Assembly (NCBI GenBank): GCA_934101795.1
Contig: CAKORY010000003.1
Location: 41,873 to 105,872 of the forward strand
DNA: 64,000 nt
Direction of reading: 5' to 3'
Origin: an uncultured Bacilli bacterium
GTDB taxonomy: Bacteria; Bacillota_I; Bacilli_A; RF39; UBA660
Below, piece by piece: positions 32,808-53,895 of this stretch. The notes under the pieces were generated by a model, which ran no database searches, had not been told where the DNA came from, and saw only the letters and a list, made by a program, of their open reading frames with translations. Both the position numbers and the translations under genes were made by a program. Numbering within the stretch: position 1 is the first letter of the stretch; each line of letters begins with the position of its first letter.

Positions 32808-32883
32808 TGGTGCTGGAAATGGGACTTGAACCTATGACCTATGCGTTACGAGGGCATTGCTCTACCAACTGAGCTATTCCAGC
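32808..32883 (-). tRNA. tRNA-Thr (anticodon CGT), 76 nt with encoded CCA
   Basis: Folded by hand. Acceptor GCTGGAA/TTCCAGC, D-arm GCTC-AGTTGGTA-GAGC, anticodon loop CTCGTAA, T-loop TTCAAGT. One mismatch each in the anticodon and T stems. TGgTATACT promoter just upstream. Confidence 0.8.
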
Positions 32884-36283: not shown

Positions 36284-39200
36284 TTATTTAATGAATTTAT
36301 CTATATCTTCTAATATATAAGCATTTATATTAACTTTCATGGCTTTATCACTTATCAAAGGCTCATTAACAATAAAGCAATAATCAATTCTCCATTTTTT
36401 CTTTTCTAAGCCATAATGTTGAATAATATCCGCAATATGAGCTTTGCACCACTCTACTCTTTTCATATGCTTATTATAAAAGCTTTTTTTATTATTAGGA
36501 TCAAACAAATCATGGTATTCATTATACATTTCATACATATTTCTTGATAATTCAAAATTTTTAACTTCACACACGATAATTCTTTTAAACTTTTTAGAGA
36601 TAAAAAGTACATCAATATCTCCTAATGTATTCTTATCTGAATTATTTATTTTTATACCATTAATTTTACTAACTTTTTTATATACAATGGAATTTGGAAA
36701 TGTACACAAATAATTATATACTTTTTCGTTAAAGTCTTCTCCACTTTGTTTATTTATAATACCAAGGTAAGTTTTCATCTTTTTGCTTCTTGCCTTAAGT
36801 GTAGCATTATTAATTATTTCGAACAAAAAGTATATCGCATTTAAAAATGACCTATAACCATAAATAATTTCATCTTTATAAATAATAAGTGGTTTTCTAT
36901 TTAATGAAAGTTCCCTATTGTTTCTCCATGGAAATACATCTACATTTCGATATGGTGTTGGCGGATTTAAATAATCTTCTCTTTCAACTTGAGATAAGTA
37001 TAAAATAATTTTATTTAAAACATCATCACTAACTTGATTATTTGTCTGATCTTTTAGTTCTTTTATAGTCGTTGAATACAATGTGTTAAAATCACCATTT
37101 TTATCCTCGGCTATTTCCAACAATGATACAGTTACTTCAGTAAAATCTTTAAATGTAAATCCAAATTCATCTTCAAAAGCTTCTTCAAATCCAGGAATAT
37201 CTTTTTTCTCAGTTTCATATTGCGATATCATTTTTTGTTTATCTTTTGCTCTGGCTCCCATCCTACCCATCTTTGCATTTTTCAAAAAATGGTTTACTCT
37301 TATCAAGAAATCTTTATTGTATCCTAATCGATTAGAATTTAATAAGGTTAATGTATTATCAGCCATTTTATAGTTGTAAATATCACATATATATGCATAA
37401 TCAATTATTTTGGAAGCTTCTGTTAAAATATATTCAATTTCATATAGTGAAATATCATCGCTTCCATCTATTTTTATTGATGCAGCTAATTCTATAATAA
37501 ATTTTAATGCGACTGAAGTTCGATTCAAATCATTTATCTTTTCATCTATCTCTTTTTTTCTATCAGGATAGCATACTACATCGCTAGCATAATTTGCTTG
37601 TCTTATTAATAATGATGATAAATTTTTTTCAAACTCTAGATATAAAAAATCTATTAACTTACGCTTATTATACTTTTTAATTTTCTTCAGAATATTATTG
37701 TATAGATGTCCAACGATATCATTTAAAATTTTATAATCTTTTATTTTACCATAATGTATTTTTTTGTCATCTTTTAAATATAGTCCTACATCATCTATTA
37801 TCAAATTTGAAATAGCATTACTAACGCATAAAACACACTCATCTTCAAAAGGAAGCATATACCCATCCCCATTAGAATTCATAATAATTAGTTTCTTTTT
37901 ATACTTATTACTAAAAATCTGATTAATCAACTCACTTGGATACTCAATTTGATAGATTTCACAGATTCTCTTTACTATATTAGATATAAAATCTTTTTCT
38001 TTATCATTTTCAGCGGACTCGAAATACCTTAAAGAGTTTTTTTCAAAAGTAATGTCTAACTGTCTACTATTAATATTGAATAATATTTTACCAACTTCGC
38101 TATCTTTATCATAATGTGTAATATATATTGATGGATCACAATGAATATTAATTTTAAACACTCCATTCAAATCTTTAAATAATGTTGAAAATTGATTTAA
38201 CCAATATGAAATCATATCTATAATTAGATTTGTTATATGGTAAGAATTATTATCAATATTTTCTTCGCTTAAAACCCATATATTAAATTTATTAAATTCA
38301 AGCAAATTGTTTAATTGATGCTTGTAAAATAATCCAGGAGCAAAACAAACTCCATCTTCTTTTTTCATCACTTCTAATAAAGATGTTCTACTAAAAAGAG
38401 CTAAGTGATAACCATTTTTTATATAAGATTTTAAAATATAATCACTACTATATTCACCAATAAAAAACAATAATGCTTCTTTTGAATCACATTCATCACC
38501 TAGATAGAATGATTTATCTCTTTCAGAAAAAAGAGCAACAAAATTTAGTTCAGTAAACAAATTCTTTTTATAATGTTTTAATCTATTTCTAGCAACAATA
38601 TACTTGTATAAAAACATATTTTCTTCAGACTCATTAATACATATTGACGTTAATTCATATGGAGAAAGCATTAGTAAATTTTTATTAGAATTCAAATATA
38701 CCGCACATATCGTATTTCTACCAATAGTTGTTGGGGTAATGATTGATACAATTTTATCTTCTTTAAAACCATGTTTTAATAATTGCTTTTTGACATTTTT
38801 TATTCGATTACTAATATAATTATTATTTATTGAATATTTATATTCTTTGTTAGTTTCATAATCTTTTCCATCATCAAATAACACAATATTGTAAAAAACT
38901 ATATCATTGCCACACAAATATATAGATTCATCAACTATATTATTACTTTCAAGTTCCAATTCAAATTGTTTACTATCTAATAATTGAAAACCCATACGTG
39001 CAAAATCTCTATGCAAGTCATTCAAAAGTAAAAGATTATAATCTTTGAGAACATCAATTTTATAAGACATAAAAAACTTTATTATCATATCCATTAATAA
39101 CATAATAATAATAGTGCAATCTACCAAAACAAATTTCTCACCATATCTAACAAATGGTCTACAATAAAACTTTTGATTATCGAAATCATCTATTTCATCA

Positions 39201-39883
39201 ATACTTATTTCTCCAAATTCAATAACAAGTTGTTCATATTGTTCTCCAAATAATTCAACCATATCTTCTTTACTAAAAGCCACTGTTTCTTTACTTGATT
39301 TAAGAACGTTGGCTGAAGGTATTTTAATATCAATATCTTTATTAAAAGATTTTAAATCATTAAGTTTAATATTTAATGAATTATAAACAAACTCGGATAC
39401 ATTTAGTAAACCCTTAACAATAATATTAAACTTTCTATAATCCTCATTTGGAAAGTCATCTTTATGGACAACTAATACTTTTAACATATGATCTAAATAA
39501 TGTGGAGCTAACGTGCTAGCTCCCATAAACAAATGATAATTTCCATAATAAATGACAGGTAATGCAAAAGGAAATTCAGGAGGATCTATCATATTTTTTC
39601 TATTAAGATTAGAAAATTCCTTTATAAAGTACTCAAGCTTATTACGACTCATGATATTTTTGCTCTTAAAATCATCGTACTTTAATGATAGAGCCGTACT
39701 TATAATTGCTTGAAAAACAACCGATTTACTTTGATTTTCGGGAATTAAAATTAATCCAGATATTTGTGATAGGAAATCAATCATATTATAATTTTTTAAT
39801 TCTTCCCTTAAACGTTTTATTACTTCAGCATCTCCTTTATTTAATTTTTCCATATTATTATTAAAAACTAATTCTGGAACCAT
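36284..39883 (-). CDS. large orphan protein (1199 aa) with C-terminal PD-(D/E)xK nuclease motif; candidate single-gene defence protein
   Basis: AGGAGG RBS. GDIDVLFISKKFKRIIVCEVKNF (D...E-x-K) is encoded at 36560..36619. No Walker A or helicase motif was seen in the preceding ~1090 aa. Confidence 0.6.
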   Translation of the reverse strand: MVPELVFNNNMEKLNKGDAEVIKRLREELKNYNMIDFLSQISGLILIPENQSKSVVFQAIISTALSLKYDDFKSKNIMSRNKLEYFIKEFSNLNRKNMIDPPEFPFALPVIYYGNYHLFMGASTLAPHYLDHMLKVLVVHKDDFPNEDYRKFNIIVKGLLNVSEFVYNSLNIKLNDLKSFNKDIDIKIPSANVLKSSKETVAFSKEDMVELFGEQYEQLVIEFGEISIDEIDDFDNQKFYCRPFVRYGEKFVLVDCTIIIMLLMDMIIKFFMSYKIDVLKDYNLLLLNDLHRDFARMGFQLLDSKQFELELESNNIVDESIYLCGNDIVFYNIVLFDDGKDYETNKEYKYSINNNYISNRIKNVKKQLLKHGFKEDKIVSIITPTTIGRNTICAVYLNSNKNLLMLSPYELTSICINESEENMFLYKYIVARNRLKHYKKNLFTELNFVALFSERDKSFYLGDECDSKEALLFFIGEYSSDYILKSYIKNGYHLALFSRTSLLEVMKKEDGVCFAPGLFYKHQLNNLLEFNKFNIWVLSEENIDNNSYHITNLIIDMISYWLNQFSTLFKDLNGVFKINIHCDPSIYITHYDKDSEVGKILFNINSRQLDITFEKNSLRYFESAENDKEKDFISNIVKRICEIYQIEYPSELINQIFSNKYKKKLIIMNSNGDGYMLPFEDECVLCVSNAISNLIIDDVGLYLKDDKKIHYGKIKDYKILNDIVGHLYNNILKKIKKYNKRKLIDFLYLEFEKNLSSLLIRQANYASDVVCYPDRKKEIDEKINDLNRTSVALKFIIELAASIKIDGSDDISLYEIEYILTEASKIIDYAYICDIYNYKMADNTLTLLNSNRLGYNKDFLIRVNHFLKNAKMGRMGARAKDKQKMISQYETEKKDIPGFEEAFEDEFGFTFKDFTEVTVSLLEIAEDKNGDFNTLYSTTIKELKDQTNNQVSDDVLNKIILYLSQVEREDYLNPPTPYRNVDVFPWRNNRELSLNRKPLIIYKDEIIYGYRSFLNAIYFLFEIINNATLKARSKKMKTYLGIINKQSGEDFNEKVYNYLCTFPNSIVYKKVSKINGIKINNSDKNTLGDIDVLFISKKFKRIIVCEVKNFELSRNMYEMYNEYHDLFDPNNKKSFYNKHMKRVEWCKAHIADIIQHYGLEKKKWRIDYCFIVNEPLISDKAMKVNINAYILEDIDKFIK

Positions 39884-39966
39884 GATATTCCTCCTAACTA
39901 AAAAAGAGCATATTCCATCTTAAAAATGAAACACACTCTATTATTTATATATATTATACCACCAAA

Positions 39967-42900
39967 TTAAAATTTGTTGTTAGATAAACTAAAGAATTTA
40001 TCAAAGAACTCTAATAATTTATCAATAACTTTATTTTTCTTTTCTTGTCTATCATTATTTGGTGTGAACATACTCATTGGAGGAAGTATTGTTGATACTT
40101 CTGTTCCAGTAGTTTCTACTCTCCCCTGTTCAAATGATCTTTGTATAAAGTTATAAGTTTCTTCCTTATTAAGATTTTCTTCAACAATTATTTTATCTAA
40201 TTCTTCTTTCTTTTTACTATTCATAAACGATTCAAAATCAACATATACATTTGAATCTTGGCCTAAAGAGTCAATAAATGCCATAATTAAATCTTTTTTA
40301 TTTCTTAAATCTGGGCTTGCCATTATAGCCTTTTGAATATTTACAAGTATTTCTTTATCTTCCATATTTGAGTCATGGTACTTTTTAACTAATGCCAAAA
40401 TATAATCAATATTAACTTCAATTGACTTAATTAATTCCATTTCAAATATAACATCTTCTGTAACATCCGTTTTTTCTCTTTTTGCTTTATTTCTGAATTC
40501 ATTATAAAGTTCTATGTAGATGCTGTGATAATCCTGTTTATCCCTTTCATTGATTAGTTCTTCATTTTTGAATTCATCGAATGATGATAAGATGTTAGTA
40601 ACTTTTAATATCGCACCATATAGTTTTATAAATTCTTTTTGTTCTGTTTCACTTTGCATTAATTCCCCTGGTGCAAATTTTGAAGTTAACTTTTCAACTA
40701 AAGATTTATACCCTTCAAAGGTTTTACCATTTTCATCTTTATATCCATAGTAGTAATCTTTATATGGTTTTAAAAGTACAATCCCACGTGCATTCTCATC
40801 ACCAAATTTAGCAAGTGCTTCATTAAGTCTATCTTCTAAGTTTCTAAATGAAATTATATTACCATATGTTTTAACACTATTTAAGATTCTATTTGTTCTT
40901 GAAAAAGCTTGAATTAATCCATGCCATTTTAAATTTTTATCAACCCATAATGTATTTAATGTTTTAGCATCAAATCCTGTTAAAAACATATTAGCTACAA
41001 TTAATATATCTATTTCTCTATTTTTCATTCTTAAGGATACATCTTTATAATAGTTTTGAAATTTTTCTGATGTTGTATCATAGCTTGTTCCGAACATGTT
41101 GTTATAATCTTTAATTGCATTTTCAAGAAAAGTTCTATCATCAGTACTTAGTGCTTCAGTTGATTCTGAATTTTCATCAATTACTCCATCTTCTCCATTA
41201 ACTCCATAAGAATATATTAAAGCAACTTTAAGATTACTATTTTTAGAATCTAGTTGTTTTTTAAATTCTGAGTAATATTCCTTAGCCATTTTAATATTTG
41301 ATACTGCAAATATAGAATTAAAACCGTTGATATTTTTTTTGGATTTAATTTCTTCTGTATTTTGTCTTTTAGCTACATCTATAATATTATCTAAAGTTGA
41401 ATAAACATAACTTTCAGATGTCTTTGTCTTCGTAGAGAAATGTTCTATTACGTAAGTTGTAATTAAACATATACGCATTTGATTATCATATAATTTTTCC
41501 TCATCTATGTTATATATCTTTTCATCTTTTACGTCATTTGATATATTTGTTCCACCAACATACTCATATCTAAATGGTAATACGTTTTTGTCTGCTATTG
41601 CATTTACGATTGTATAAGTATGTAATCTTTCTCCAAAGATTTGTTCAGTTGTTTCCGAAATACCTTTTATTGTTCTAGCATTTTCTGGGAATATTGGGGT
41701 TCCTGTAAATCCAAACAAATAATATTTTTTAAAATTTTTAATAATTGCTTTGTGCATATCTCCGAATTGAGATCTGTGACATTCATCAAATATAAATACT
41801 ACATGTTTATCAAATACATTACTATTTTCATTTTTCTTAATAAATTGTGATAATTTTTGTATTGTAGTTATTATTATTTTTGCATTAGGGTCATTTAATT
41901 GTTCTTCTAATACTTTGGTTGATGTATTAGAGTTAGCAGCTCCTTCTTTAAATCTATCATATTCTTTCATTGTTTGATAGTCTAAATCTTTTCTATCCAC
42001 AACAAATAATACTTTATCAATAAAATCTAATTTACTAGCAAGTTGTGATGTTTTAAAAGATGTTAATGTTTTTCCAGAACCGGTTGTATGCCAAATATAT
42101 CCACCTGATTTAATAGTTCCATAGAATTTATTATTGTAGGCTATGGTAATTCTATTTAAAATTTTTTCAGTAGCAACTATTTGATAAGGCCGCATTACTA
42201 ATAATTCTTCTTCAGAAGTAAATACACAATACTTAGTTAAAATATTTAATATTGTATGCTTAGTAAAGAATGTTTTAGCAAAATCGATTAAATCTGTTAT
42301 CCCATTATTTTTTTGATCTGCCCAATATGAAGTAAATTCAAATGAATTAGACTTCTTTTTCTTTTGATTATTGATATGAAATTCCCTTGTAGTATTTGAA
42401 TAATACTTGGTTAATGTTCCATTTGAAATAACAAATATTTGAACGAAATTATATAATCCAGAACCTGCCCAGAATGAATCTCTTTGATATCTTTCTATTT
42501 GATTGAAAGCTTCTCTTAAATCTACTCCTCTTTTCTTTAATTCAATATGAACCAAAGGTAAACCATTAACTAAAATAGTTACATCATATCTATTATCTTG
42601 ATTCCCATCATTATTAACGTATTGATTTAATACTTGAAGATTATTGTTATGAATATTATTCTTATCTATTAAATAAATATTCTTCTTTTCACCTGAATCA
42701 AGAGTTATCTCTTGCTTATAATCTTCTTGAATTAATCTTGTTTTTTCAATGATATAATCATTTTTATTAGCAATTATTTTAGTAAAGAAGTCATCCCATT
42801 CTCCATCGGTAAATCTATAATTATTTAATTTTTCTAATTGCATTCTTAGATTAAGAATCAATTGATCTTCTGAATGTATATTTAATCTTTCATATCCTTG

Positions 42901-43035
42901 TTCAACTAAATTTTTAATTAATTCTTTTTCAAGAGCATCTTCGCTTTGAAAAGATTTTGATTCTCTATTTAATCCCTTATATTCAGCTAATACTGTTGAG
43001 TTATCATTTTCACTTATTAAACTTATACTATTCAT
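39967..43035 (-). CDS. hsdR: type I restriction endonuclease subunit R
   Basis: N-terminal nuclease DVTILVNGLPLVHIELKKRG. Helicase motifs HTTGSGKTLTSF, FDECHRSQ, GFTGTPIF. GGAGG RBS. Confidence 0.9.
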   Translation of the reverse strand: MNSISLISENDNSTVLAEYKGLNRESKSFQSEDALEKELIKNLVEQGYERLNIHSEDQLILNLRMQLEKLNNYRFTDGEWDDFFTKIIANKNDYIIEKTRLIQEDYKQEITLDSGEKKNIYLIDKNNIHNNNLQVLNQYVNNDGNQDNRYDVTILVNGLPLVHIELKKRGVDLREAFNQIERYQRDSFWAGSGLYNFVQIFVISNGTLTKYYSNTTREFHINNQKKKKSNSFEFTSYWADQKNNGITDLIDFAKTFFTKHTILNILTKYCVFTSEEELLVMRPYQIVATEKILNRITIAYNNKFYGTIKSGGYIWHTTGSGKTLTSFKTSQLASKLDFIDKVLFVVDRKDLDYQTMKEYDRFKEGAANSNTSTKVLEEQLNDPNAKIIITTIQKLSQFIKKNENSNVFDKHVVFIFDECHRSQFGDMHKAIIKNFKKYYLFGFTGTPIFPENARTIKGISETTEQIFGERLHTYTIVNAIADKNVLPFRYEYVGGTNISNDVKDEKIYNIDEEKLYDNQMRICLITTYVIEHFSTKTKTSESYVYSTLDNIIDVAKRQNTEEIKSKKNINGFNSIFAVSNIKMAKEYYSEFKKQLDSKNSNLKVALIYSYGVNGEDGVIDENSESTEALSTDDRTFLENAIKDYNNMFGTSYDTTSEKFQNYYKDVSLRMKNREIDILIVANMFLTGFDAKTLNTLWVDKNLKWHGLIQAFSRTNRILNSVKTYGNIISFRNLEDRLNEALAKFGDENARGIVLLKPYKDYYYGYKDENGKTFEGYKSLVEKLTSKFAPGELMQSETEQKEFIKLYGAILKVTNILSSFDEFKNEELINERDKQDYHSIYIELYNEFRNKAKREKTDVTEDVIFEMELIKSIEVNIDYILALVKKYHDSNMEDKEILVNIQKAIMASPDLRNKKDLIMAFIDSLGQDSNVYVDFESFMNSKKKEELDKIIVEENLNKEETYNFIQRSFEQGRVETTGTEVSTILPPMSMFTPNNDRQEKKNKVIDKLLEFFDKFFSLSNNKF

Positions 43036-44119
43036 CTTTTACCTCCACTTTATAGTAATTAATAAAATCATTAAAGGACTTTATAAATATATCTTTTTCA
43101 TGTTCTGTTAAATCTGTATATTCAAATTCGGGCAAACTGCCATGACTATACAAATTAATTAGTTTTATAATTTCTTTTTTATAATCATTATCAGGTATAC
43201 ACTCATCATACTTTTTATATCCAAAATAATTAGAAGTTTTTTCTATTATAATTCTAAACATATTAAAATGAATTTTCTCAAGTGTTTCTTCATTAATAGC
43301 AGTATTTATTTTTTTTATTAAAGTTAAATGATATCCAAACGGTGAGTCGCCTTTCTCCTCAAGGGTATAGATATAATTTTTTTTATTTAAAATATATGAT
43401 TTTAATGTAATTTGTCCTTCTCTGTTTAAAAGATTATATATTGAATTGTAAAATAGTGCATGATGTGTTGTTATTAAAATATTTATTTTAATTTTATTTT
43501 CTTCCATTCTTTGTATCAGTTCAAAAATTTTTATTGCCACATTTAGCATTTTTATATCATCAATAGAAGATACTGGATCATCAATAACTAAATATTCAAC
43601 ATTATCAAATATGTTAGTTGACCTATCTTCTTGATTTTCATTAAGTTCATAAATCATCAAGTCAACAAATGTATAAAATATTGACCAAATAAAAGTACTT
43701 TCTTCGGCTTTCGATATTTTTATACCATGGTCATAACCTTCTATTGTTTTAGCACTAAACTCAATAAATCCTAGTTCTAAATTTATAGACGCTAGTGTTG
43801 AATCATCACAAAATATTTGAAAATTTTTTTCAATTTCATTTTCTAATCCCTGATCCCTTATAATTTTTGCTATCTCTGAATTAATGTCAAATGTTAGTAT
43901 TGAATTGGAATTATTCCATGAAAATTCATCCTGAAACATTGAATTAAAGCATAGTACTTTATCTTCCAATAAATCTTTAAACATTCTTGATATTCTTGTT
44001 TTTCCAGTACCATTAAAAGCATATACTAAATCAACTTTTATTTTTTTTGATGGTCCATCAAGGTTAAGTTTCAATTTCTCAAATACATCTTCTAAATTAT
44101 TTAATGTTGTTTTATTCAT
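43028..44119 (-). CDS. prrC: PrrC-like anticodon nuclease (ABC-type NTPase N-domain plus R-x3-E...H nuclease domain)
   Basis: Walker A AFNGTGKTR, Walker B-like YLVIDDPVSS. C-terminal FRIIIE (R at 43253-55, E at 43241-43) and LYSHG (H at 43142-44), with H 33 residues after E. Sits between hsdS and hsdR as in the E. coli prr locus. 8-nt overlaps on both sides. Confidence 0.7.
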   Translation of the reverse strand: MNKTTLNNLEDVFEKLKLNLDGPSKKIKVDLVYAFNGTGKTRISRMFKDLLEDKVLCFNSMFQDEFSWNNSNSILTFDINSEIAKIIRDQGLENEIEKNFQIFCDDSTLASINLELGFIEFSAKTIEGYDHGIKISKAEESTFIWSIFYTFVDLMIYELNENQEDRSTNIFDNVEYLVIDDPVSSIDDIKMLNVAIKIFELIQRMEENKIKINILITTHHALFYNSIYNLLNREGQITLKSYILNKKNYIYTLEEKGDSPFGYHLTLIKKINTAINEETLEKIHFNMFRIIIEKTSNYFGYKKYDECIPDNDYKKEIIKLINLYSHGSLPEFEYTDLTEHEKDIFIKSFNDFINYYKVEVKDE

Positions 44120-45305
44120 TTTTAAGTTCCTCAAAGTTTAACAATTTATTTCTATAATACTCATATTGTTTTTTTCTTAATTCTATTTCTGCTGGAATTC
44201 CTTCAGATATGTCGTTAACCAATTTATCGAATATATCTAATATACTGGCTATATGAATTTGTTTTTCAATGGAAGGAACAATAAATTCATAATTCATTAT
44301 TACTTGTTTATCTCCCCGTGGCATCTTAGCCCCTTTCGAATTTGAATTATTATATTCAAAGAATGATTCCGATGATAAAACATAGTATAAGAATCGTGGA
44401 TATATTTTTTTAGTATCATTTACTCTTATATCTAAAACATCTCCATTAGTTCCACCACAACAATCAGCAAACCAGATTTTTCTTAAATATGGTCTAATAT
44501 TTCCAATCAAAATATCATTCTTTTCAAATTTAGTTGAATTGCCTGATGTGGGTACATGATAAGACTTTGTTTTTCCTTTTTTATTTTGAAGTAAGTTGTC
44601 CACACCAACATAATTATCTTCACTAAGTTTATCATAACTAATTCTATCATTAGAATAAGAGCATATTTCTTTAAGTTTAACTAATTCAGTTCCATCATTC
44701 AATAATTTTCCACGCCAAAACTCATATTGATTCTTTCTCGCTTCTAGCTCCGCTTCTAGCTCCGCTTCTAGCTCGCTAAATTTATCAAGAATTCTTACTA
44801 TTTCTTCTTGAACTTCTATTGGCGGGGTAGGAATTATAGTATTCTTTATTGCATCCGAACTTAAATTTGGTTGAGCTCCTCCACCTGCTAACCGATAAAA
44901 ATAATTAACTTTATTTAATAAATAATGATATAAAAAACGATTATTCATCCTGTCATCTTTAGGGGTTATCTTTCCAATACGTTGATTTAAATATAATAGT
45001 TTACCAGTGCAATTAATTCCAATTTTACCCGTTGTTGCACCAGACATAGCAATAACTATTTCATCACTACCAACTTTGAAGGGAGATAAATCACTATTAT
45101 AATCAAAAACATCTATATATTTTATATCAGACAAATCTATCTTCTTACCATCAATATTTGTGATTCTGAGTAAAATATCACCTTTAGATTTAAATAGACT
45201 ACTCTTAAATGCATAACCATTTTGAAAATAACAAATTTCACCAATAGTTTTGTACTCAACCCCTTTAGGACACATTTCTTTTATTAAATCATTAATCTTA
45301 CTCAT
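44112..45305 (-). CDS. hsdS: type I R-M specificity subunit S
   Basis: Two target-recognition halves separated by the conserved helix EEIVRILDKFSELEAELEAELEARKNQYEFWRGKLL. C-terminal RKKQYEYYRNKLL. Confidence 0.85.
   Translation of the reverse strand: MSKINDLIKEMCPKGVEYKTIGEICYFQNGYAFKSSLFKSKGDILLRITNIDGKKIDLSDIKYIDVFDYNSDLSPFKVGSDEIVIAMSGATTGKIGINCTGKLLYLNQRIGKITPKDDRMNNRFLYHYLLNKVNYFYRLAGGGAQPNLSSDAIKNTIIPTPPIEVQEEIVRILDKFSELEAELEAELEARKNQYEFWRGKLLNDGTELVKLKEICSYSNDRISYDKLSEDNYVGVDNLLQNKKGKTKSYHVPTSGNSTKFEKNDILIGNIRPYLRKIWFADCCGGTNGDVLDIRVNDTKKIYPRFLYYVLSSESFFEYNNSNSKGAKMPRGDKQVIMNYEFIVPSIEKQIHIASILDIFDKLVNDISEGIPAEIELRKKQYEYYRNKLLNFEELKNE
44739..44774. repeat. perfect 12-bp x3 tandem repeat (CGCTTCTAGCTC) encoding (ELEA)3 in the central spacer helix of HsdS
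   Basis: Read directly: three identical units at 44739-50, 44751-62 and 44763-74. Confidence 0.95.
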
Positions 45306-46866
45306 GGTAATCAACCTCAAGTTCTTTGATTATTTTTTCTAGTTCCTCTCTTATTTTTTGTTGTCTAGGTACAATTTCTGCAAGTTTTCTGTTTACTTCT
45401 TCTATATCAATTGTATTATCCTCAATATTGCTTTTTAAATAAGAATTGACTGATATATTATAATCATTATCTTTAATTTCTTCATAAGTAGCTAAATAAG
45501 ATTTATTGTCAACAGTTTTTCTTTCTTTCAACAAATTAATTATATTATTAATATTTTCATCTGATAATTTATTTTTATTAGTATTTCTAACACATTCATT
45601 AGATGCATCTACAAATAAAATGTTATTATCGGATTTGTTTTTCTTTAACACTAAAATACAGGTTGTTATTGGTGTTCCAAAGAATAAATCTGAAGGTAAT
45701 TGGATGATTGTGTCTACGAAGTTATTATCAATCATATATTTTCTAATCTTTTGTTCCGCTCCACCCCTATAAAGAACACCTGGGAACTCAACTATAGCAG
45801 CCGTACCTATAGGTGAAAGCCATGATAACATATGCATGGTAAATGCTAAATCTGCTTTAGATTCTGGAGCCAACACCCCTGCTGGAGCAAACCTTTCATC
45901 ATTTATTAAAATTGGATTTGATTTACCAGCCCATTTTATTGAATATGGTGGGTTTGATACTATGGCATCAAATGGTTCATCATTCCAATGTGATGGATGA
46001 ATTAATGTATCTCCTCTTTCAATACTAAATTTATTGTAATTAATATTGTGTAAGAACATATTTATTCTAGCTAAATTGTAAGTTGTAAGATTAATTTCTT
46101 GACCGAAAAATCCCTCTCTTACATTTTCTTTTCCAAGAATTTTGGCAAATTTTAAAAGTAATCCACCTGAACCACATGCTGGATCGTACACTTTATTAAC
46201 TGATTTTTTATCCATTATTACTATCTTTGCAAGTAATTCTCCAACTTCTTGCGGAGTAAAAAATTCTCCTCCAGATTTACCTGCATTTGAAGCATACATT
46301 GTCATTAAATACTCATACGCATCTCCAAATAAGTCTATCTTATTTTCTTCATAATTTCCAAAATTTAAATCTCCAATTGCGTTTAATAATTTAACAAGTT
46401 TTTTGTTTCTTTCATCAACCGTATTACCTAATTTATTATCAATTGTAAAATCATCAAATAGCCCTTTAACATCATCTTCTGATGCTGTTCCTCTTGCTGA
46501 TGATTCTATATTATTAAATACATTTGAAATTACAACATTTAGGTTTTCATTTTTATCTGCACCTTTTCTTATATTGCAAAATAATTCACTTGGTAAAATG
46601 AAGAATCCTTTTTCTTCAAGTATTTGACTTTTACCCAATAAGGCTTCTTCATCAGAAATATCTCTATATTTAAAATTTGACATACCTGCTTTTCTTTGAT
46701 TTTCGTTAACATAGTTTTCTATATTTTCTGATATAAATCTATAAAATAGTAAACCTAATACATATTGTTTAAAATCCCATCCGTCTACCGAGCCTCTTAG
46801 TTCATTTGCTATTTTCCAAATTGTTTTATGTAATTCTTCTCTTTCTATTTCTTTTTTATTATTCAT
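45298..46866 (-). CDS. hsdM: type I R-M N6-adenine DNA methyltransferase subunit M
   Basis: Start moved to MNNKKEIE (AAAGGTGG RBS). HsdM N-domain LHKTIWKIANELRG. SAM motif YDPACGSGGLL. Catalytic SNPPY. Confidence 0.9.
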   Translation of the reverse strand: MNNKKEIEREELHKTIWKIANELRGSVDGWDFKQYVLGLLFYRFISENIENYVNENQRKAGMSNFKYRDISDEEALLGKSQILEEKGFFILPSELFCNIRKGADKNENLNVVISNVFNNIESSARGTASEDDVKGLFDDFTIDNKLGNTVDERNKKLVKLLNAIGDLNFGNYEENKIDLFGDAYEYLMTMYASNAGKSGGEFFTPQEVGELLAKIVIMDKKSVNKVYDPACGSGGLLLKFAKILGKENVREGFFGQEINLTTYNLARINMFLHNINYNKFSIERGDTLIHPSHWNDEPFDAIVSNPPYSIKWAGKSNPILINDERFAPAGVLAPESKADLAFTMHMLSWLSPIGTAAIVEFPGVLYRGGAEQKIRKYMIDNNFVDTIIQLPSDLFFGTPITTCILVLKKNKSDNNILFVDASNECVRNTNKNKLSDENINNIINLLKERKTVDNKSYLATYEEIKDNDYNISVNSYLKSNIEDNTIDIEEVNRKLAEIVPRQQKIREELEKIIKELEVDYHE

Positions 46867-47145
46867 ATTACTTACCACCTTTTCTTTTATGTATACAATA
46901 TAGAAGCAAGGCACTCTTAACTGTATCATCAACGTTATTCATATTTAATTCAAATATGCTGTCTATTATCTTTTTTACCATCATTATAATCTTTTAAGTT
47001 TTTATTGGTAAATGTGATTTTGTCTATTTCTAATTTATGTCATTTAACAGTTTATTCATGATAATACCCTCCTAAATTATCTGTTATATAGACCATTATA
47101 ACATACAATTTGATAAATTAGCATAAAAAAGGTTAAATTACATTA

Positions 47146-47168
47146 TTAATTAATTAATTAATTAATTA
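47146..47168. repeat. (TTAA)n tetranucleotide microsatellite, about 5.75 units
   Basis: Read directly, in the intergenic region between the HEPN gene stop and the hsdM upstream region. Confidence 0.85.
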
Positions 47169-47339
47169 TATTCTATATTAAACAACACTAAATTTATATA
47201 TTATTCCACTTTAGGGCACATAGATGTCAAAAATACAAAATTATATATTTTACTATTATGTTTTTTAACACTTTATAATTATTTCATGACTTACCCCTTC
47301 ACTTAAATATTAATATATCACAGCATGCAACATTATAAA

Positions 47340-48737
47340 CTAAATATCGCGATTATCATATATTGATAAATATTCATCTTTGTTTAAAACGTCTTCAACA
47401 TATTTTTCATCATCAGTCACAAGAAATAATAAATTACTTATAAATATTTTTTCTAGTCTTCTAACATATCCGGGCAAATATTCTTCTTTTAAAATGTAGT
47501 CTTTTGTGTTAAGATGCGTATAATAATTTCGCGTATTAGCCAAATAATCATATACATTACTTTTACTATCTTCTTTTTTACATTGCTTATATTCAAATCT
47601 TTTAGGCATTATATTATTTTTGTCAATTTTCTTTATTCTACTTGCTAATTTTACTCTTCTATCATATTGATAGACCATAGCATTGACTACACTTTCATGT
47701 ATATTATCTATATTCTGTATATATTCTTTGTTAAAGCCATTATCTTTCACAGCTTTTTCTAAGCTTATTTTATTTTCATCATAAAATTTTTGCAAAATAT
47801 TTTTAAAGGCTTTATTCTTTTTTTCCTTTTCTTCAATATTCTCTGTTGCATAGCTAAATTTTTCTATACATTTCATTATTGTTAAAAAATCATCTTCTAT
47901 GGTATGAGATTTATATGGACTATAATAGACGTTTATTGCCTCTTTAAACCTTTTATTGAAATATATGTCGTGCCACTTACTAAAAATTTTTATTATACTA
48001 TCACTAATACAATTATAATAAGTTCTTAAATTAAAAGTAGGATAACCTAAATGATTGCTATACCAATTACTAAAATCTGTATTTATTACAACTTCGTCTT
48101 CAATATCACCCATAAAATTTTTACCTTTATACATTTTGTGAAATTTAATTAATCTTACTTGACTGCTATATCCCATAAACAAAGCAAAAAATCTTGTAAT
48201 CATTTGTATATACATCATAATTTTTTCTATGCTCATTATATAACCTGACCTTACACAAATATATGGTGTTATATTAAAATTTTTAATAGATGTATCAGTT
48301 AAATTACAATTTTCTTCAAAATATTTTACATAAATTTTCAATTTATCATTATTGTATAATAAAATGTCATTAGGTATATTAAATTTAATTTCATTTTTTT
48401 CTTTTATAATTGTTTTAATATTTAACCATTCATCTAATCGATTAAAAGTAAATCTAAAACTTTGTATATGCTTACTAAAATCTACGTTTTTATATTTTAT
48501 ACAAATTCCTTTTTTGACAACATAACCAACTTTATACTTGTAATATCCTATTCCATTACCAATTAAAAGACAATTATATAAACTTATATATTCATTTCCT
48601 GCAAATCCTGTTATTTTTTTCTTATATCCATTAATGCTACTTTCATTTATTGTCAAATATATGTTATTATTATCATCTATTTCGCATTCCCCAGGATGAT
48701 TTTTTTTATCAAAATAAAACGTACCTTTATAAATCAT
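47340..48737 (-). CDS. ApeA-like HEPN-domain protein (465 aa)
   Basis: C-terminal YLANTRNYYTHLN, an R-x4-H HEPN signature (R at 47529-31, H at 47514-16). 17 nt downstream of the KAP NTPase gene. Confidence 0.6.
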   Translation of the reverse strand: MIYKGTFYFDKKNHPGECEIDDNNNIYLTINESSINGYKKKITGFAGNEYISLYNCLLIGNGIGYYKYKVGYVVKKGICIKYKNVDFSKHIQSFRFTFNRLDEWLNIKTIIKEKNEIKFNIPNDILLYNNDKLKIYVKYFEENCNLTDTSIKNFNITPYICVRSGYIMSIEKIMMYIQMITRFFALFMGYSSQVRLIKFHKMYKGKNFMGDIEDEVVINTDFSNWYSNHLGYPTFNLRTYYNCISDSIIKIFSKWHDIYFNKRFKEAINVYYSPYKSHTIEDDFLTIMKCIEKFSYATENIEEKEKKNKAFKNILQKFYDENKISLEKAVKDNGFNKEYIQNIDNIHESVVNAMVYQYDRRVKLASRIKKIDKNNIMPKRFEYKQCKKEDSKSNVYDYLANTRNYYTHLNTKDYILKEEYLPGYVRRLEKIFISNLLFLVTDDEKYVEDVLNKDEYLSIYDNRDI

Positions 48738-48754
48738 ATTTACATCCTTTCACA

Positions 48755-50068
48755 TTAATTAGTATCACTAAAATTAATTGAATTCCCTAGCATAGAAATG
48801 GCTTCAAGATACGGAAAATTATCATAACTTGTTTTCTTTGTAAAAATTTTTTTATATTCTTTAATAAATTTATCAACTAAATTTTCAGTTTCATTTCTTG
48901 GCAAAATTTCAGATAGCCATCTAATATAATCTCGCTCATCATTATCACTTTCTAGAAATGCGAAAAAAGATTTTATTATTTCATCTCCATTACCAGTAAT
49001 AAAACTATTGTAGTTATTTATATTTTTAATTTTTAATGCTAAAGCCATTGGCAATAAAACATCAGCTTCAAATAAATATTTATTTCTGTTAAAAGAATCT
49101 TTAAAATCAGTATATGGTTCAACAATCTTGTACATTGACATATACTTGTTACATTCCCTATATGAAAATTTTAAATATTTAAATAATTCAAAAGATATGT
49201 TTTCTGGTAAATTAGTAGATTGTATAATCTTACAGTGCTTTTTAACATAATTTTCTAAATTATCAATTCCAAGTGTAATAACACTATCATAGATTTTATT
49301 TAAATAACCATATCCATCAAAATCACTGCCATAATATTTTTTTATTGTATAACTCAATTGCCTATTATTAGTTACAACTATAATACTTAATTTTGGGGTG
49401 TTGTAGAAATGTTTTAATGTTTCAAGTAATTTTACTGCATAATCAGGTCGACATCTATCCAATTCATCAACTACTAATAATATTCTTTCATCTGATTTGA
49501 TTATTTTGTTAAATAATTTATTCAATGATGATTGTTTTTCTTCAATTGTAACAATACTATCTGCTAAATCCTCAAATGATTTTAACTTTTCAAAGCAATC
49601 TTTAGTTATATATCCCAAACCGCTTTTTTCAATAATGTTTTCTAATATTGGTTTTATTGTACCAAACAATTCTTCAGGATTTTCAAAACGTTTTTTATAT
49701 TTAGGGTATTCATTTAAAACATTATAAATTAGTGACTCTAGTGGGTTGTCATGATTATCATTCTCCCAAGCATTATAATAAACTACAATATGTTTTTGTG
49801 AAAATTCTTGTATTTTAGCATAATCCTTATGTGTCTTTATACAATCAATTGTACTGTGGCTATTACATATATAAATTAATTGTTTTATGAAAAAAGTTTT
49901 TCCTGTTCCCCATTCGCCATCTATGGATAATATAAAATTCTCATTAACATTATTTAATAATTTCATAAGATTAATTATTTTACTATTTCTTTCTAACAAA
50001 TCGTCATTAATAGTACTAAGTAAATTTTCGTCATTAATTAAAAGTTCATATTTTTTCAAATTTATCAC
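48755..50068 (-). CDS. KAP-family P-loop NTPase
   Basis: Walker A IDGEWGTGKTFF, YNAWENDNHDNPLESL, Walker B LLVVDELDRCRPDYAVKLLETLKHF. The start is ambiguous: GTG at 50068, or TTG at 50059 after GAGGTG. Confidence 0.8.
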   Translation of the reverse strand: MINLKKYELLINDENLLSTINDDLLERNSKIINLMKLLNNVNENFILSIDGEWGTGKTFFIKQLIYICNSHSTIDCIKTHKDYAKIQEFSQKHIVVYYNAWENDNHDNPLESLIYNVLNEYPKYKKRFENPEELFGTIKPILENIIEKSGLGYITKDCFEKLKSFEDLADSIVTIEEKQSSLNKLFNKIIKSDERILLVVDELDRCRPDYAVKLLETLKHFYNTPKLSIIVVTNNRQLSYTIKKYYGSDFDGYGYLNKIYDSVITLGIDNLENYVKKHCKIIQSTNLPENISFELFKYLKFSYRECNKYMSMYKIVEPYTDFKDSFNRNKYLFEADVLLPMALALKIKNINNYNSFITGNGDEIIKSFFAFLESDNDERDYIRWLSEILPRNETENLVDKFIKEYKKIFTKKTSYDNFPYLEAISMLGNSINFSDTN

Positions 50069-50080
50069 CTCTGTTTTTTA

Positions 50081-50809
50081 TTATTTCTTCACAAACCTAC
50101 ACTTTGGAAAATTTGAGCACCCCATAAATTCTCCGTATTTTCCATTTCTCTTTATAAGCTTTCCACCACACCTTGGGCATCTATCTTTAAACTCTTCTTC
50201 TTTATTATTTTTGATTAATTTAGCATTCTTTACATGATTTTTTCTTTCGTTTTTATCTTTTATATTTAGATTATTTATAATTTCATATAATTCAATTAAG
50301 TTTTCAACAATTACTTCTTGATAAGAAAGTATTTTCTCTAATAAATCATATATTCTAGTTACATTATTTGATTTAACTGACACTTTTGCTCTACTTGGAA
50401 TACATACTAGTGATATAAACTTCTCTTCTGGCATATTTAATACTTCATGTAGGGATTTGACATGACCATAATTTTGATGAAATGGATTATTTATATAAAA
50501 ATTTTTGTTTCCACTTTTTATTAACCATCTTTTATCATATTCGTTTCCCTTTATGTAACCGTTATATTGTTTTGTTTCAATTACAAACACACCATATTTC
50601 GAAACAACAACATGATCTATTTGATGTGTACTTTCATCATTTGTTTTAATCATTACATCATTAATTACTAAATACTCACTTGGCAATCTTTTCAATTCTC
50701 TTTTAACCCAAAATTCTCCAGCTTTACCTATCCACTTTTTATAATTAACACTTAACAAAATATCTACTGCTACAATTATCCATAACCATGGATTAAATAA
50801 CCACTCCAT
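50081..50809 (-). CDS. NERD-domain protein with N-terminal TM helix and C-terminal topoisomerase-type C4 zinc ribbon
   Basis: [68 protein letters not shown]. Confidence 0.8.
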
Positions 50810-50837
50810 TACATAACCTCTTTCCTAATTGTTTTTT

Positions 50838-50866
50838 ATTATATATTAGTTACGATAAAAAAGCAA
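50838..50866 (-). promoter_or_regulatory. sigma-A-type promoter for the NERD-KAP-HEPN operon
   Basis: Minus strand: TTGCTT-N17-TATAAT, about 30 nt upstream of the NERD start. Confidence 0.5.
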
Positions 50867-50890
50867 TATAATGTTCTAATTTATAATTAC

Positions 50891-50917
50891 AAAAAAAGAA
50901 ACCTTTTTAAGATTTCT
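50891..50917 (-). terminator. intrinsic terminator after the Cys-rich mini-gene
   Basis: Minus strand: AGAAATC-TTAAAAA-GGTTTCT (one G-U pair) followed by TTTTTTGT. Confidence 0.45.
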
Positions 50918-50932
50918 TCAATTTATCTATAA

Positions 50933-51082
50933 CTAGCAACTGCAGTTTTCACAATCACATTCTTGGCAATTGCAATCATCTTCACAGTTACATTCTTCAC
51001 TATTGCATCCACATTCACAAGTTTCATCGTAATTACATTCTTCACATTCACAACCGCAACTGCATTTTTCTTTTTCTTCCAT
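50933..51082 (-). CDS. 49-aa acidic, cysteine-rich peptide (16 Cys), not in the ORF track
   Basis: Own translation: MEEKEKCSCGCECEECNYDETCECGCNSEECNCEDDCNCQECDCENCSC, stop TAG. AGAGGTG RBS 6 nt before the ATG. Same strand as the dual-HEPN gene and 57 nt downstream of it. Terminator follows. Confidence 0.55.
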   Translation of the reverse strand: MEEKEKCSCGCECEECNYDETCECGCNSEECNCEDDCNCQECDCENCSC

Positions 51083-51139
51083 TTTTTCACCTCTTTTTCT
51101 CTATTTATTATACTACGATTTTGGTTTTATTTAAATACT

Positions 51140-52807
51140 TTATGATTTTTTGTTTCTTACTAATTTTTGTTCATTTTTATTTAGGAATGCTATTATTATA
51201 TTTTGATTTTCATATATCATGTTTATAAAATCTATTATATCTATTTCACATTTAAATGTAAGCTTTCCTTCATAAATATCTTCAAAAACTATTTTAATTT
51301 CATTATTTATAGATGTTTCTAGTTTATAATTTCCATGTGATATACTATTTCTAATACCATTTATTATTACTTTGTTTTTTAAGTGTTCACTATTTTCTTG
51401 TTCATAAGTAACAATTTCATTTAATCTTATATTTAACAAAGCAGCTTGTGCCTCTAAAATTTGTTTTTGAGTTTCAGTTTTTGTTAAAATTGCAGATATT
51501 CTTTTTATGGCAATTGAATTTCCTTTTTGCTTAACGTTTTCTAAATTTTGATTATCTTTAGCAATTTTACTAGATATTTCTACTATTTGTTTATTTTTAC
51601 TAGCAATTTGAATTAAAACTTCATTTTTGATAGTTTCATCTGGTTCAAAATATAAAACATTTATGCTACTTAAATCTAGATTGCCATAATCTAAACCCGT
51701 ATTTTCATCTTTACTATATTCATTATTATTTTTAAAAATTGTATCATTTCCATATGAAAATAAACTTTGAAATAAAGCAATTTCAACCCCTACAAGCTCA
51801 TTATAACTAATTATATCTACACTTTGTCTTCTTTTTAATGCTTCTACCGTGTTTTTCTTGTCTTTTATTTCAATCTTTTGCAAATCAGAAATTAATAACA
51901 GATTTTTTAATAATGAGTATAGTAAATTAAAATCCGGTTTTCTTTTAATTTCTATTATTTTAGAAAGTAAATTTACTTCATCTTTATATTCCATGTCATC
52001 TGTTAAATTCATAAATGTTTCATCTACTGCTTGCTTAAGTATATGATATGGTATTCTTTCTTCTTTAACATCAACTAAATATTTTTCCTTAATTTGTCTT
52101 TCAAAGTCCATTATTATTTGATTAGATTGTAAGTCTTTACAAGCAGCTAACACTAATTCAAATTTATCTTTTAAAAGCTCATTTATCATAGAATTATCTC
52201 GACTTTTAAGGGTAATAGTTTTTATCTTAAATGTTTTAGCAAATCTTAATAGTTCATCTTTATTTTTAAAAGGTTTTGTTCTTTTTCTTTCTTCTTTATT
52301 TGAAATTAACAATTCTCTTTTGTAAATATGTTTTTCAGGATTTTTTAAGCTTGCTTTTAAACATGAAATTATCATTTTAGATAAATCACTTATGTTAACT
52401 GCGACTTCATCACCATCAATATTAAAAATAACTTTATTTTCTTCTGCATCTAATTTAAAACTACCATGTGCTATTTTGTTTCTTAATTCACCTACTACAG
52501 ATGCAGCATCTTTAAACTTATGATTATCTACATAAAATCCATCACTTTTTTTAATAGCTATCATATTTACAGAACGTAGTAATTCATTATAAAAAATCTT
52601 TGTTTCATAGTTTTCTTTTGTTCCTTCAACAACATCTTCCTTAATAGCTAATAAAACACAACTTACTAAACTAAAACTTGCTATATTTAAGTATTTACTA
52701 TCCATTATATATTCAAAATCTTCTATTTTTTCATCTAATATATTTGTTAAAATGATTGCATATTCTTTTATTCCACTATAAAGTGTTTTTAATGTTTCAG
52801 TATCCAT
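51140..52807 (-). CDS. dual-HEPN protein (two RNxIxHG motifs), about 555 aa
   Basis: Start moved to MDTETL (GGGGGA RBS). ELRNKIAHGSFKL (R at 52481-83, H at 52466-68) and GIRNSISHGNYKL (R at 51350-52, H at 51335-37). Each motif is followed by a similar beta-like segment (VIFNIDG / KIVFEDI). Coiled-coil-like stretch between them. Confidence 0.6.
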   Translation of the reverse strand: MDTETLKTLYSGIKEYAIILTNILDEKIEDFEYIMDSKYLNIASFSLVSCVLLAIKEDVVEGTKENYETKIFYNELLRSVNMIAIKKSDGFYVDNHKFKDAASVVGELRNKIAHGSFKLDAEENKVIFNIDGDEVAVNISDLSKMIISCLKASLKNPEKHIYKRELLISNKEERKRTKPFKNKDELLRFAKTFKIKTITLKSRDNSMINELLKDKFELVLAACKDLQSNQIIMDFERQIKEKYLVDVKEERIPYHILKQAVDETFMNLTDDMEYKDEVNLLSKIIEIKRKPDFNLLYSLLKNLLLISDLQKIEIKDKKNTVEALKRRQSVDIISYNELVGVEIALFQSLFSYGNDTIFKNNNEYSKDENTGLDYGNLDLSSINVLYFEPDETIKNEVLIQIASKNKQIVEISSKIAKDNQNLENVKQKGNSIAIKRISAILTKTETQKQILEAQAALLNIRLNEIVTYEQENSEHLKNKVIINGIRNSISHGNYKLETSINNEIKIVFEDIYEGKLTFKCEIDIIDFINMIYENQNIIIAFLNKNEQKLVRNKKS

Positions 52808-53007
52808 AATTTCCCCCACTTATGGGCTATATTTTACCACAATAGCGATTTTAAGTCAAATTCTATGCCAAAAGAAAAAAAGATATTATTTTTTCTTACT
52901 AGTACTTTTTTTAGCAACTTTTTTAAGAAGTTAAGATAAGCAAGTGTAATAAAAATTAATAATATTTAAAGTAAATATAATCTTTATTTGTAAATTATAT
53001 GTAAACT

Positions 53008-53895
53008 TTACCTTTTTCTTGGTTTTATAATATCATTACTATTTATATGGCCTATTAGCAATGATGAATTTATATCATGATTATTAATATTTATCTTAAC
53101 TTTACTTTCATCGTAATTTGCATAACAATATTTACATAAATGATTGCACGAATTATACATACCAATATCCACTAATTCTACACAATTACATGCACTACCT
53201 TTACGTGCTTGCCATTTTTTATATGTCTTACCTGTTAGTTTAAAAGCTAGTTCTTTTGACATGCATTCACCTTTTATAAATCCATATTCTGTTAAGTTTC
53301 TTTCTTCAAAACATGTTTGTACAACCATATTATTATTTTTTGCAATCTTGCTAAAGCTTTCACCAATTAGTTTGTAATCTTCTTCGGTGAGTGAACGATA
53401 CTTTAAGTATGGTAAATTTTTTCTTACATTTTGATAATTATCTATAAATGATACAATTATAGTCTTAACATAGCCTTTTAAAAGACTACATAACTTTTTA
53501 AATGCTTTAATATGATATTCTACGTTGTATTTTTTACTTATAAAAATTGGATCATATCTTACATAGACATTCTCGATACCAATTGTTGTTGATATCTTTT
53601 TGACTGCTTCGATTATATCACTTTTAGATGGTAAATTTGGTTCTATATCATCTTTATAAGGAGTTATTGTTACATGAAAAATATATGGTATTTTTATATC
53701 ATCAAGTTTATCTATGATAGGTATTGGATTTTTGGTACAAAATAATATTAAATCTACATCTTCAAAATTGATTCTACTTACTAAATTTGGATTAAATGGG
53801 TTTCTAACATCTACATATCCTTCTTTAAGTCTATTTAAAAACCATTTTGAATAAAATGCTACAATATCTGTTCTACCACTTACATTTAATATCAT
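53008..53895 (-). CDS. DUF1848-family protein
   Basis: MILNVSGRTDIVAFYSKWFLNRLKEGYVDVRNPFNP... and C-terminal CNHLCKYCYAN, typical of DUF1848 as I recall the family. Confidence 0.6.
   Translation of the reverse strand: MILNVSGRTDIVAFYSKWFLNRLKEGYVDVRNPFNPNLVSRINFEDVDLILFCTKNPIPIIDKLDDIKIPYIFHVTITPYKDDIEPNLPSKSDIIEAVKKISTTIGIENVYVRYDPIFISKKYNVEYHIKAFKKLCSLLKGYVKTIIVSFIDNYQNVRKNLPYLKYRSLTEEDYKLIGESFSKIAKNNNMVVQTCFEERNLTEYGFIKGECMSKELAFKLTGKTYKKWQARKGSACNCVELVDIGMYNSCNHLCKYCYANYDESKVKININNHDINSSLLIGHINSNDIIKPRKR

Follow-up and report, generated by a model that had tools for sequence, protein, structure and literature searches.

Two HEPN domains in a single polypeptide are the hallmark of the Cas13 effectors, in which the two domains pair into one RNase site. 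Outside CRISPR systems, CnuE of the CoCoNuT systems also combines two HEPN domains with coiled-coil segments; it is fused to a winged helix-turn-helix domain, is found in McrBC/helicase operons, and carries a second motif shortened to RxH. The solo HEPN protein HepS of the Gifsy-1 prophage is constitutive and auto-inhibited, and direct binding of a phage protein leads to tRNA cleavage. Proteins of the Pfam family PF18736 (NCBI name: HEPN family nuclease) have a single domain, are ~155-170 aa long, are mostly proteobacterial, and have been recorded near restriction-modification (R-M) and other conflict genes. Here we describe a gene encoding two HEPN-type modules in one chain, located in a 64,000-nucleotide stretch from an uncultured Bacilli bacterium (GenBank assembly GCA_934101795.1, contig CAKORY010000003.1, positions 41,873 to 105,872; hereafter "the window"), together with its family of relatives. 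An earlier reading of the letters of the window (the original prediction) had proposed that this gene forms a bicistronic unit with a cysteine-rich peptide encoded immediately downstream.

The double-HEPN protein resembles each of these systems in part. It shares with Cas13 the presence of two HEPN domains per polypeptide and has roughly the same size as the compact Cas13an; however, its loci are without a CRISPR array or repeat-derived RNA, it has no sequence or Foldseek similarity to solved Cas13, and its modules fall in the PF18736 branch whereas those of Cas13an cluster with AbiD/F. As in CnuE, two HEPN domains and coiled-coil segments are combined in a protein outside CRISPR systems, but the double-HEPN protein carries two full Rx4H motifs and has no recurrent McrB, McrC or helicase partner. 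HepS, as a single-gene HEPN system without a partner, serves as our working model. However, HepS is a prophage-encoded tetramer with one HEPN domain per chain, whereas the double-HEPN family is chromosomal with two modules per chain, and no homology to HepS was detected. In PF18736, as in the double-HEPN modules, a helix ending in R-N-x3-H is followed by a beta meander with a hydrophobic F-x-D/E strand and then by another helix, and the conserved helix-2 K/E of the double-HEPN protein aligns with the PKE(R) of that family. The double-HEPN family differs from PF18736 in having two modules separated by a middle of ~235 aa, a coiled-coil hairpin, a total length of ~555 aa, a Gly after the motif His, and an occurrence in gut Bacilli. 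We found no name for the double-HEPN protein in any source examined.

Two HEPN-type modules in one chain

The features named in the original prediction, an open reading frame (ORF) of about 555 aa with two RNxxxHG motifs some 370 aa apart, were all recovered. The motifs are 377 residues apart, with R109/H114 held in ELRNKIAHGSFKLD and R486/H491 in GIRNSISHGNYKLE. Using hhalign, we found that the N-terminal module matches the C-terminal module over the helix, motif, beta meander and following helix (P 5e-8, probability 95%), and that the C-terminal module matches a 44-sequence alignment of PF18736 (pEK499_p136; P 6e-7, probability 92%), bearing out the proposal of two homologous HEPN-type modules in one chain. 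The PF18736 reference was obtained by recovering the name-giving protein of plasmid pEK499 (L078:41727-42227, Pfam E 1e-49) and then collecting its family. A longer alignment of the N-terminal module places K56/E57 over the conserved PKE(R) of PF18736. When 86 relatives were scanned against Pfam one by one, PF18736 tied for the most members matched (6, best 2e-6) and a second HEPN family, PF18737, was seen once; precomputed PF18736 matches exist for most homologues, flagged as weak. In the window protein itself, the PADLOC model RTasHEPN gave a marginal match over the first motif. Membership in PF18736 was rejected, as the protein fails both the family threshold and the single-domain architecture.

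The AlphaFold2 (AF2) model of the full chain is confident (predicted local distance difference test, pLDDT, 90.7; predicted template modelling score, pTM, 0.85), as is that of the N-terminal domain modelled as residues 1-160 (pLDDT 89.2). The N-terminal domain is composed of helices 3-24, 37-59 and 101-113, a three-strand beta meander (117-138) and a helix (139-154). R109 and N110 lie in the last turn of helix 101-113 with H114 in the loop, and R486 lies in the last turn of helix 473-490 with H491 in the loop. A survey of HEPN domains places the motif where helix 3 ends and the following loop starts, with a conserved acidic residue in helix 2 (PMC3710099); the motif is recognised as Rx4-6H with a polar residue (N, D or H) after the Arg. 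E57 is the conserved acidic residue of helix 2 (37-59) in the N-terminal module, and no acidic equivalent was seen in the C-terminal module. The three-strand meander following each motif is an elaboration specific to the family, also present in pEK499_p136.

Between the two motifs, the coiled-coil-like sequence noted in the original prediction was modelled as a long helical hairpin (residues 392-471), for which the PDB sequence matches are coiled coils only. When the two halves of the protein were aligned globally with each other by hhalign, this hairpin corresponded to helices 1 and 2 of the C-terminal module. The middle region before it, residues 157-390, has no match in the family scans or the PDB sequence search. 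The double-HEPN protein is best described as a new architectural variant within the HEPN superfamily, and it was not classed as a Cas13.

A word-indexed search returned 80 relatives with identities down to 29%, and an exhaustive profile search returned 379 clusters (50% identity) at E <= 1e-3, 286 of them at E <= 1e-10. Nearly all of the 150 clusters listed are 530-600 aa long and match end to end, giving a family length of ~550 aa. A scan of one genome per species found 74 loci with a homologue, nearly all in uncultured gut Bacilli or in metagenome-assembled genomes labelled 'Tenericutes'. No change was seen at R109, N110, A113, H114, G115, R486, H491 or G492 in an alignment of 26 diverse relatives, with identities as low as 29%. 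We then counted residues in 122 representatives of 50%-identity clusters. R109 is kept in 118 (the remaining 4 have Lys) and H114 in 119; the second motif, expected in homologues if the original prediction was right, is indeed present (R486 in 121, H491 in 120). N follows the Arg in 107 representatives at the first motif and 113 at the second, and the helix-2 residues K56 and E57 of the N-terminal module are kept in 116 and 115. Loss of a His was seen in only ~5 sequences, and both Arg/His pairs are kept in ~95% of these relatives. Preservation of the motif pair is far beyond chance. The double-HEPN family is unstudied, widespread in gut metagenomes and fast-diversifying.

The coordinates of the gene, its domains and the adjacent mini-gene are collected in Table 1. 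An alternative GTG start at 52819 would extend the double-HEPN ORF (51140-52819, minus); GGGGGA precedes the ATG, and the sequences of homologues start with MD.ET. The G+C content of the window is 26.7%. The segment upstream of the gene (52799-52926) stands before a different first gene in locus L004.

Table 1. Features of the double-HEPN gene and the cysteine-rich mini-gene in the window
Feature	Position	Strand	Basis or remark
Double-HEPN gene, 555 aa from ATG	51140..52807	minus	ORF list and sequence
N-terminal HEPN-like domain, residues 1-156	52340..52807	minus	AF2 models
First Rx4H motif, R109-N-K-I-A-H114-G115	52463..52483	minus	C-terminal end of helix 101-113
Middle alpha/beta region, residues 157-390	51638..52339	minus	Most variable part between alleles
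Antiparallel coiled-coil hairpin, residues 392-471	51395..51634	minus	AF2 helices 392-428 and 431-471
C-terminal HEPN core, residues 473-555 (motif helix, three-strand meander, terminal helices)	51143..51391	minus	hhalign to PF18736
Second Rx4H motif, R486-N-S-I-S-H491-G492	51332..51352	minus	R486, H491 and G492 invariant in the 26-sequence alignment, N487 nearly so
Putative promoter ahead of the double-HEPN gene, TTGACT-17-TAAAAT with upstream TG	52831..52859	minus	Consensus match 10/12, best in region
Cysteine-rich mini-ORF, 49 aa	50933..51082	minus	Conserved CxC pattern in 58 metagenome loci
Mini-ORF -10 box TATAAT (51107-51112) and ribosome-binding site GAGGTG (51088-51093)	51088..51112	minus	Conservation and consensus scan
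Intrinsic terminator after mini-ORF, 11-bp hairpin and U-run	50889..50926	minus	dG -10.3 kcal/mol, z -2.97

Allele exchange, selection and broken copies

Comparison of the window with the closely related locus L002 reveals a replacement of the double-HEPN allele. Nucleotide identity is 96-100% through DUF1848, the last ~110 nt of the HEPN gene, the mini-ORF and the gene for a NERD protein, and falls to 53-86% through the body of the HEPN gene, whose products are 59% identical. Within the middle region identity is 53-75% over most of its length, with one 100-nt bin at 82%. The recombination boundaries of this swap map to 52927-53008 and 51250-51350, and one of them falls within the HEPN gene, at its 3′ end. 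At the left boundary, loci L003, L075 and L004 have 1.6-4 kb of other genes inserted, suggesting that insertion or exchange recurs at a hotspot immediately downstream of DUF1848. The divergent HEPN allele has a synonymous divergence (dS) of 0.89 vs 0.14 for the adjacent NERD gene, and we therefore conclude that it was imported and did not evolve in place.

The HEPN gene also evolves faster than its surroundings. Its ratio of nonsynonymous to synonymous substitution (dN/dS) is 0.21 vs 0.06-0.11 for RecG and DUF1848, and its product has 37% identity where syntenic neighbours have 72-86%. Additionally, several copies are broken. Frameshifted copies occur in L001 (with the truncated form on 10 contigs), L079 and L135, and in L129 (811-3505, minus as stored) a G+C-rich 710-aa transposase-like ORF is inserted at about residue 390 of the HEPN gene, leaving a 186-aa C-terminal part as the remnant. 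One genome carries a second, degenerate HEPN copy (L015 and L055). Tandem head-to-tail pairs of HEPN paralogues, 24-34% identical to the query, are found in four loci (L014 5974-9330; L040 1008-4341; L042 2301-5634; L037 2488-5296); in L014, L040 and L042 neither copy has lost an Rx4H motif, and the pairs could reflect heteromeric assembly or diversification. Diversifying alleles, an elevated dN/dS, broken copies and paralogues are traits of a dispensable, diversifying accessory gene.

The cysteine-rich mini-gene and the genomic neighbourhood

The 49-aa ORF that the original prediction placed 57 nt downstream of the double-HEPN gene, with a good ribosome-binding site (RBS; GAGGTG) and ahead of the first terminator, is present. 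Its product contains 16 Cys and 13 Glu, and a 33-nt stretch is repeated within the ORF; searches of Pfam, NCBIfam and the PDB gave no match for it. We found no hairpin in the 57-nt spacer. Because small low-complexity ORFs are seldom called, a protein homologue search gave one protein only, and mini-ORF loci were instead collected with a degenerate DNA pattern in metagenomes (58 loci) and with an ORF screen on Cys content in the 74 genome loci.

These loci show that the mini-ORF carries its own expression signals. In 15 of the 16 upstream regions shown, GTAGTATAAT lies ~24 nt before the ATG whichever gene (HEPN2, C9, C3 or other) is upstream, and in the remaining one it is replaced by ATAGTATAAT; all 16 have a GAGGT-type RBS. 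Most of these loci also have a terminator hairpin after the mini-ORF, whose sequence varies by lineage with the pairing kept. The gene in front varies as well. In metagenome group A (peptide MEEKEKCSCGC...) the order is DUF1848-[C59-C8]-HEPN-mini-NERD, and in group B (peptide MEDKEKIETC...) it is DUF1848-C10-HEPN-C9-C8-C3-mini-NERD. Among 47 informative metagenome loci, C3, a 1289-aa phosphoesterase-domain gene, is directly upstream of the mini-ORF in 33, with the HEPN gene then ~5.9 kb away, and the HEPN gene is directly upstream in 11. In one of the remaining loci, L129, the upstream HEPN gene is the copy split by the transposase insertion. The genome screen found a CxC peptide in 10 of 74 loci, all close relatives, and directly after the HEPN gene only in L001-L003; it is absent within ~6 kb in the other 64, so the conservation in homologous loci that a partner would be expected to show was not seen. 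The mini-ORF of L054 is found immediately upstream of DUF362-CinA, which forms the backbone beyond the far end of the window's variable island (described below). Finally, across the L002 swap the mini-ORF stays 98% identical while the HEPN gene is replaced by the 59%-identical allele.

With its own signals, its other upstream genes and its retention with the flanks in the swap, the mini-ORF is an independent transcription unit of the chromosomal backbone and not a partner of the HEPN gene. The bicistronic unit of the original prediction is thus not upheld, and neither is the functional pairing built on it; transcription may run on from the HEPN gene into the mini-ORF, but this has no bearing on function. 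Across loci L079-L136 the mini-gene encodes 45-53 aa, ~1/3 of them Cys in CxC repeats, and is very acidic. In at least two species groups of gut Bacilli it is conserved as a monocistronic unit with a near-consensus -10 box, a strong RBS and a terminator of its own (window 50889-51112, minus). Its product may be a metallothionein-like or metal/redox-buffer protein. It resembles metallothioneins in its short length and its content of about one-third cysteine in CxC repeats, but differs in being extremely acidic and in its lack of database matches.

In the window, the double-HEPN gene is found within a variable region between RecG and DUF362/CinA, a defence-island-like stretch (36284-53895). The island encodes DUF1848, the double-HEPN protein, a NERD/Top1 Zn-ribbon protein, a KAP NTPase (PADLOC PDC-S20), a protein with an ApeA N-domain and HEPN (PDC-S58), a 1199-aa Upx-like protein, and a type I R-M system (HsdM, HsdS, HsdR) in which an inserted AAA_13 ATPase gene separates HsdS from HsdR. 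A tRNA gene lies ~3.4 kb past the far end of the variable region (32811-32883, minus, Rfam 64.9 bits). In most lineages the HEPN gene occupies a different place in the genome, and the gaps upstream of it are mostly short, with sequence not common to lineages.

We found no recurring partner gene. In the 75 loci compared, with 77 HEPN2 copies, the commonest neighbour cluster occurs in 14 loci. DUF1848, C9 and C10, which recur in close lineages only, and C3, seen in ~12 loci only, were rejected as obligate partners, and McrB, McrC and CnuH families are not among the commonest Pfam and PADLOC matches (top 25 per scan) of the 142 distinct neighbours. A toxin-antitoxin pair with either a protein or an RNA antitoxin was also rejected, as there is no co-varying neighbour and no non-coding RNA (ncRNA) was found. 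The ~1290-aa C3-type protein, which has a C-terminal calcineurin-like phosphoesterase domain, lies beside or two genes from the HEPN gene in ~12 of the 74 loci (for example L004 2104-5973; L015, L025 and L062; group-B loci such as L005-L008) and is the only neighbour that recurs beyond close relatives. The original prediction noted that no CRISPR array is nearby, and our repeat-spacer screen agrees, with none in the window or in 136 related loci; its single match is a perfect coding tandem repeat without spacers (L023 5001-5357, period ~51 nt). No tandem repeats lie near the HEPN gene, and the Rfam scan at gathering thresholds gave only tRNA and no ncRNA accompanying it.

Function of the double-HEPN protein

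The most likely reading, in our view, is a dispensable gene whose product is a self-contained RNase of conflict or defence in which a variable region acts as sensor; we put its chances at about even. In this protein, two HEPN modules of the pEK499_p136 type, probably derived by internal duplication, are split by the variable alpha/beta region, and the first two helices of the C-terminal module are stretched into the coiled-coil hairpin. The two Rx4H motifs, together with K56/E57 of helix 2, may form one composite, metal-independent RNase site, either in-chain or across a dimer. The enzyme would stay inactive until its middle/coiled-coil part senses a trigger, for example a phage component, and would then cut cellular or invader RNA (tRNA, rRNA or mRNA), causing growth arrest. 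Neither a guide RNA nor a dedicated partner gene would be required. Residues ~130-480, the middle and the coiled coil, differ most between alleles and are therefore a candidate sensor or autoinhibitory element. The lack of a conserved partner suggests a single-protein logic like that of HepS, with direct sensing of the trigger followed by RNA cleavage. RNase activity, a composite site, trigger sensing and a role in defence are thus what we infer by analogy with the described HEPN systems. A bolder form, in which the family reached the Cas13 principle independently and without CRISPR, combining a duplicated HEPN domain of the pEK499_p136 type, an intramolecular RNase, a hypervariable middle/coiled-coil sensor of phage factors and allele exchange among gut Bacilli strains in a protein with no close solved fold, is conceivable but doubtful.

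Several observations weigh against a conflict RNase. The N-terminal module aligns only weakly with PF18736 (hhalign P 4e-4 to 8e-4); the window protein has no PF18736 match even at E <= 10, where the Pfam gathering threshold is 26.6 bits; and its scans with Pfam, NCBIfam, PADLOC and PHROGs gave nothing significant, PADLOC defence models included. Foldseek searches of the full model against PDB and BFVD and of the N-domain model against PDB gave no neighbour at E <= 0.001. In the two best-sampled species every strain seen has the HEPN gene or a remnant of it. The 142 neighbours across the 74 loci are mostly housekeeping genes, with few defence genes among them (RT-protease, retron reverse transcriptase (RT), MADS, methyltransferases), and no copy of the gene was found in phage, plasmid, IMG/VR and PHROGs collections. 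The presence in all sampled strains of two species and the lack of mobile-element or phage copies would also suit a lineage-specific housekeeping nuclease for RNA processing or turnover in these small-genome gut Bacilli, as would the confinement of the family to one bacterial lineage, the frequent tight spacing of the gene between same-strand housekeeping genes, and purifying selection at a dN/dS of 0.21. However, a housekeeping gene would not be expected to change its genomic position in most lineages, to be frameshifted or disrupted by a transposon in several strains, to be exchanged as deeply divergent alleles between near-identical strains, to have tandem paralogues and a degenerate second copy, or to diverge so far beyond its syntenic neighbours, and we regard this role as unlikely.

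The structural searches bear on whether the modules are catalytic at all. The best Foldseek hits (E 0.05-0.4) are coiled-coil or unrelated proteins, and Csm6 (5yjc) appears only at E 2.6 with probability 0.04. PDB sequence searches with the single sequence, the module profile and the full profile returned coiled-coil noise only; no PDB sequence matches the module profile, and there is no PF18736 structure for comparison. The comparison with HEPN families suggested in the original prediction therefore came out divided: hhalign links the C-terminal module to PF18736, but Foldseek finds no HEPN or Cas13 structure, and because of this the assignment to HEPN rests on sequence profiles and topology. 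Non-catalytic modules that bind RNA or nucleotides or serve other chemistry, or a new fold that shares only the motif with HEPN, would account for confident models without a structural neighbour among solved HEPN proteins and for a beta meander outside the canonical four-helix core after each motif; moreover, we know of no characterised member of PF18736. Nevertheless, the strictly kept R, polar residue and H in both modules are the mark of HEPN RNases that are active, PF18736 is assigned by Pfam to the HEPN clan from profile evidence, and the accepted HEPN protein Csx1 has a beta hairpin after its motif, all of which make a non-catalytic protein rather improbable. A pairing of the HEPN protein as toxin with the Cys-rich peptide as antitoxin, modulator or metal partner is very improbable. 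The two ORFs lie on the same strand with no terminator between them and are adjacent in the window, L001-L003, L075-L077 and 11 intact group-A metagenome loci, but in every lineage the mini-ORF brings a conserved -10 box, an RBS and a terminator of its own, and it more often follows C3, is missing from the flanks of most genome loci, and stayed with its 96-100% identical backbone when the HEPN allele was swapped. Dependence on a guide RNA or ncRNA, as in Cas13 or AbiF, with the RNA component having been missed, is scarcely credible: two HEPN domains per chain and the precedents of compact Cas13an and of AbiD/F with its ncRNA would favour it, but there are no repeat arrays, the only Rfam match is the distant tRNA, the upstream gaps, mostly short, hold no sequence common to lineages, and no Cas13 structure in the PDB matches. 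AbiD/F (Abi_2) with ncRNA RF03085 was itself rejected, with no Abi_2 in the Pfam scans and only tRNA from Rfam.

The tempting inference of an operon is thus corrected, and the Cys-rich mini-gene, being separately promoted, may merit interest of its own as a source of a metallothionein-like protein. If the reading of the double-HEPN protein as a self-contained conflict RNase is true, abundant uncultured Bacilli of the human gut would encode a compact, guide-free, single-chain family of double-HEPN nucleases. Besides Cas13 and CnuE, it would stand as a second case in nature where duplication of HEPN built an intramolecular active site, and through it the PF18736 branch of HEPN, so far uncharacterised, would gain a first functional handle. 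The swapping of alleles would then mark the region in which sensing may take place.

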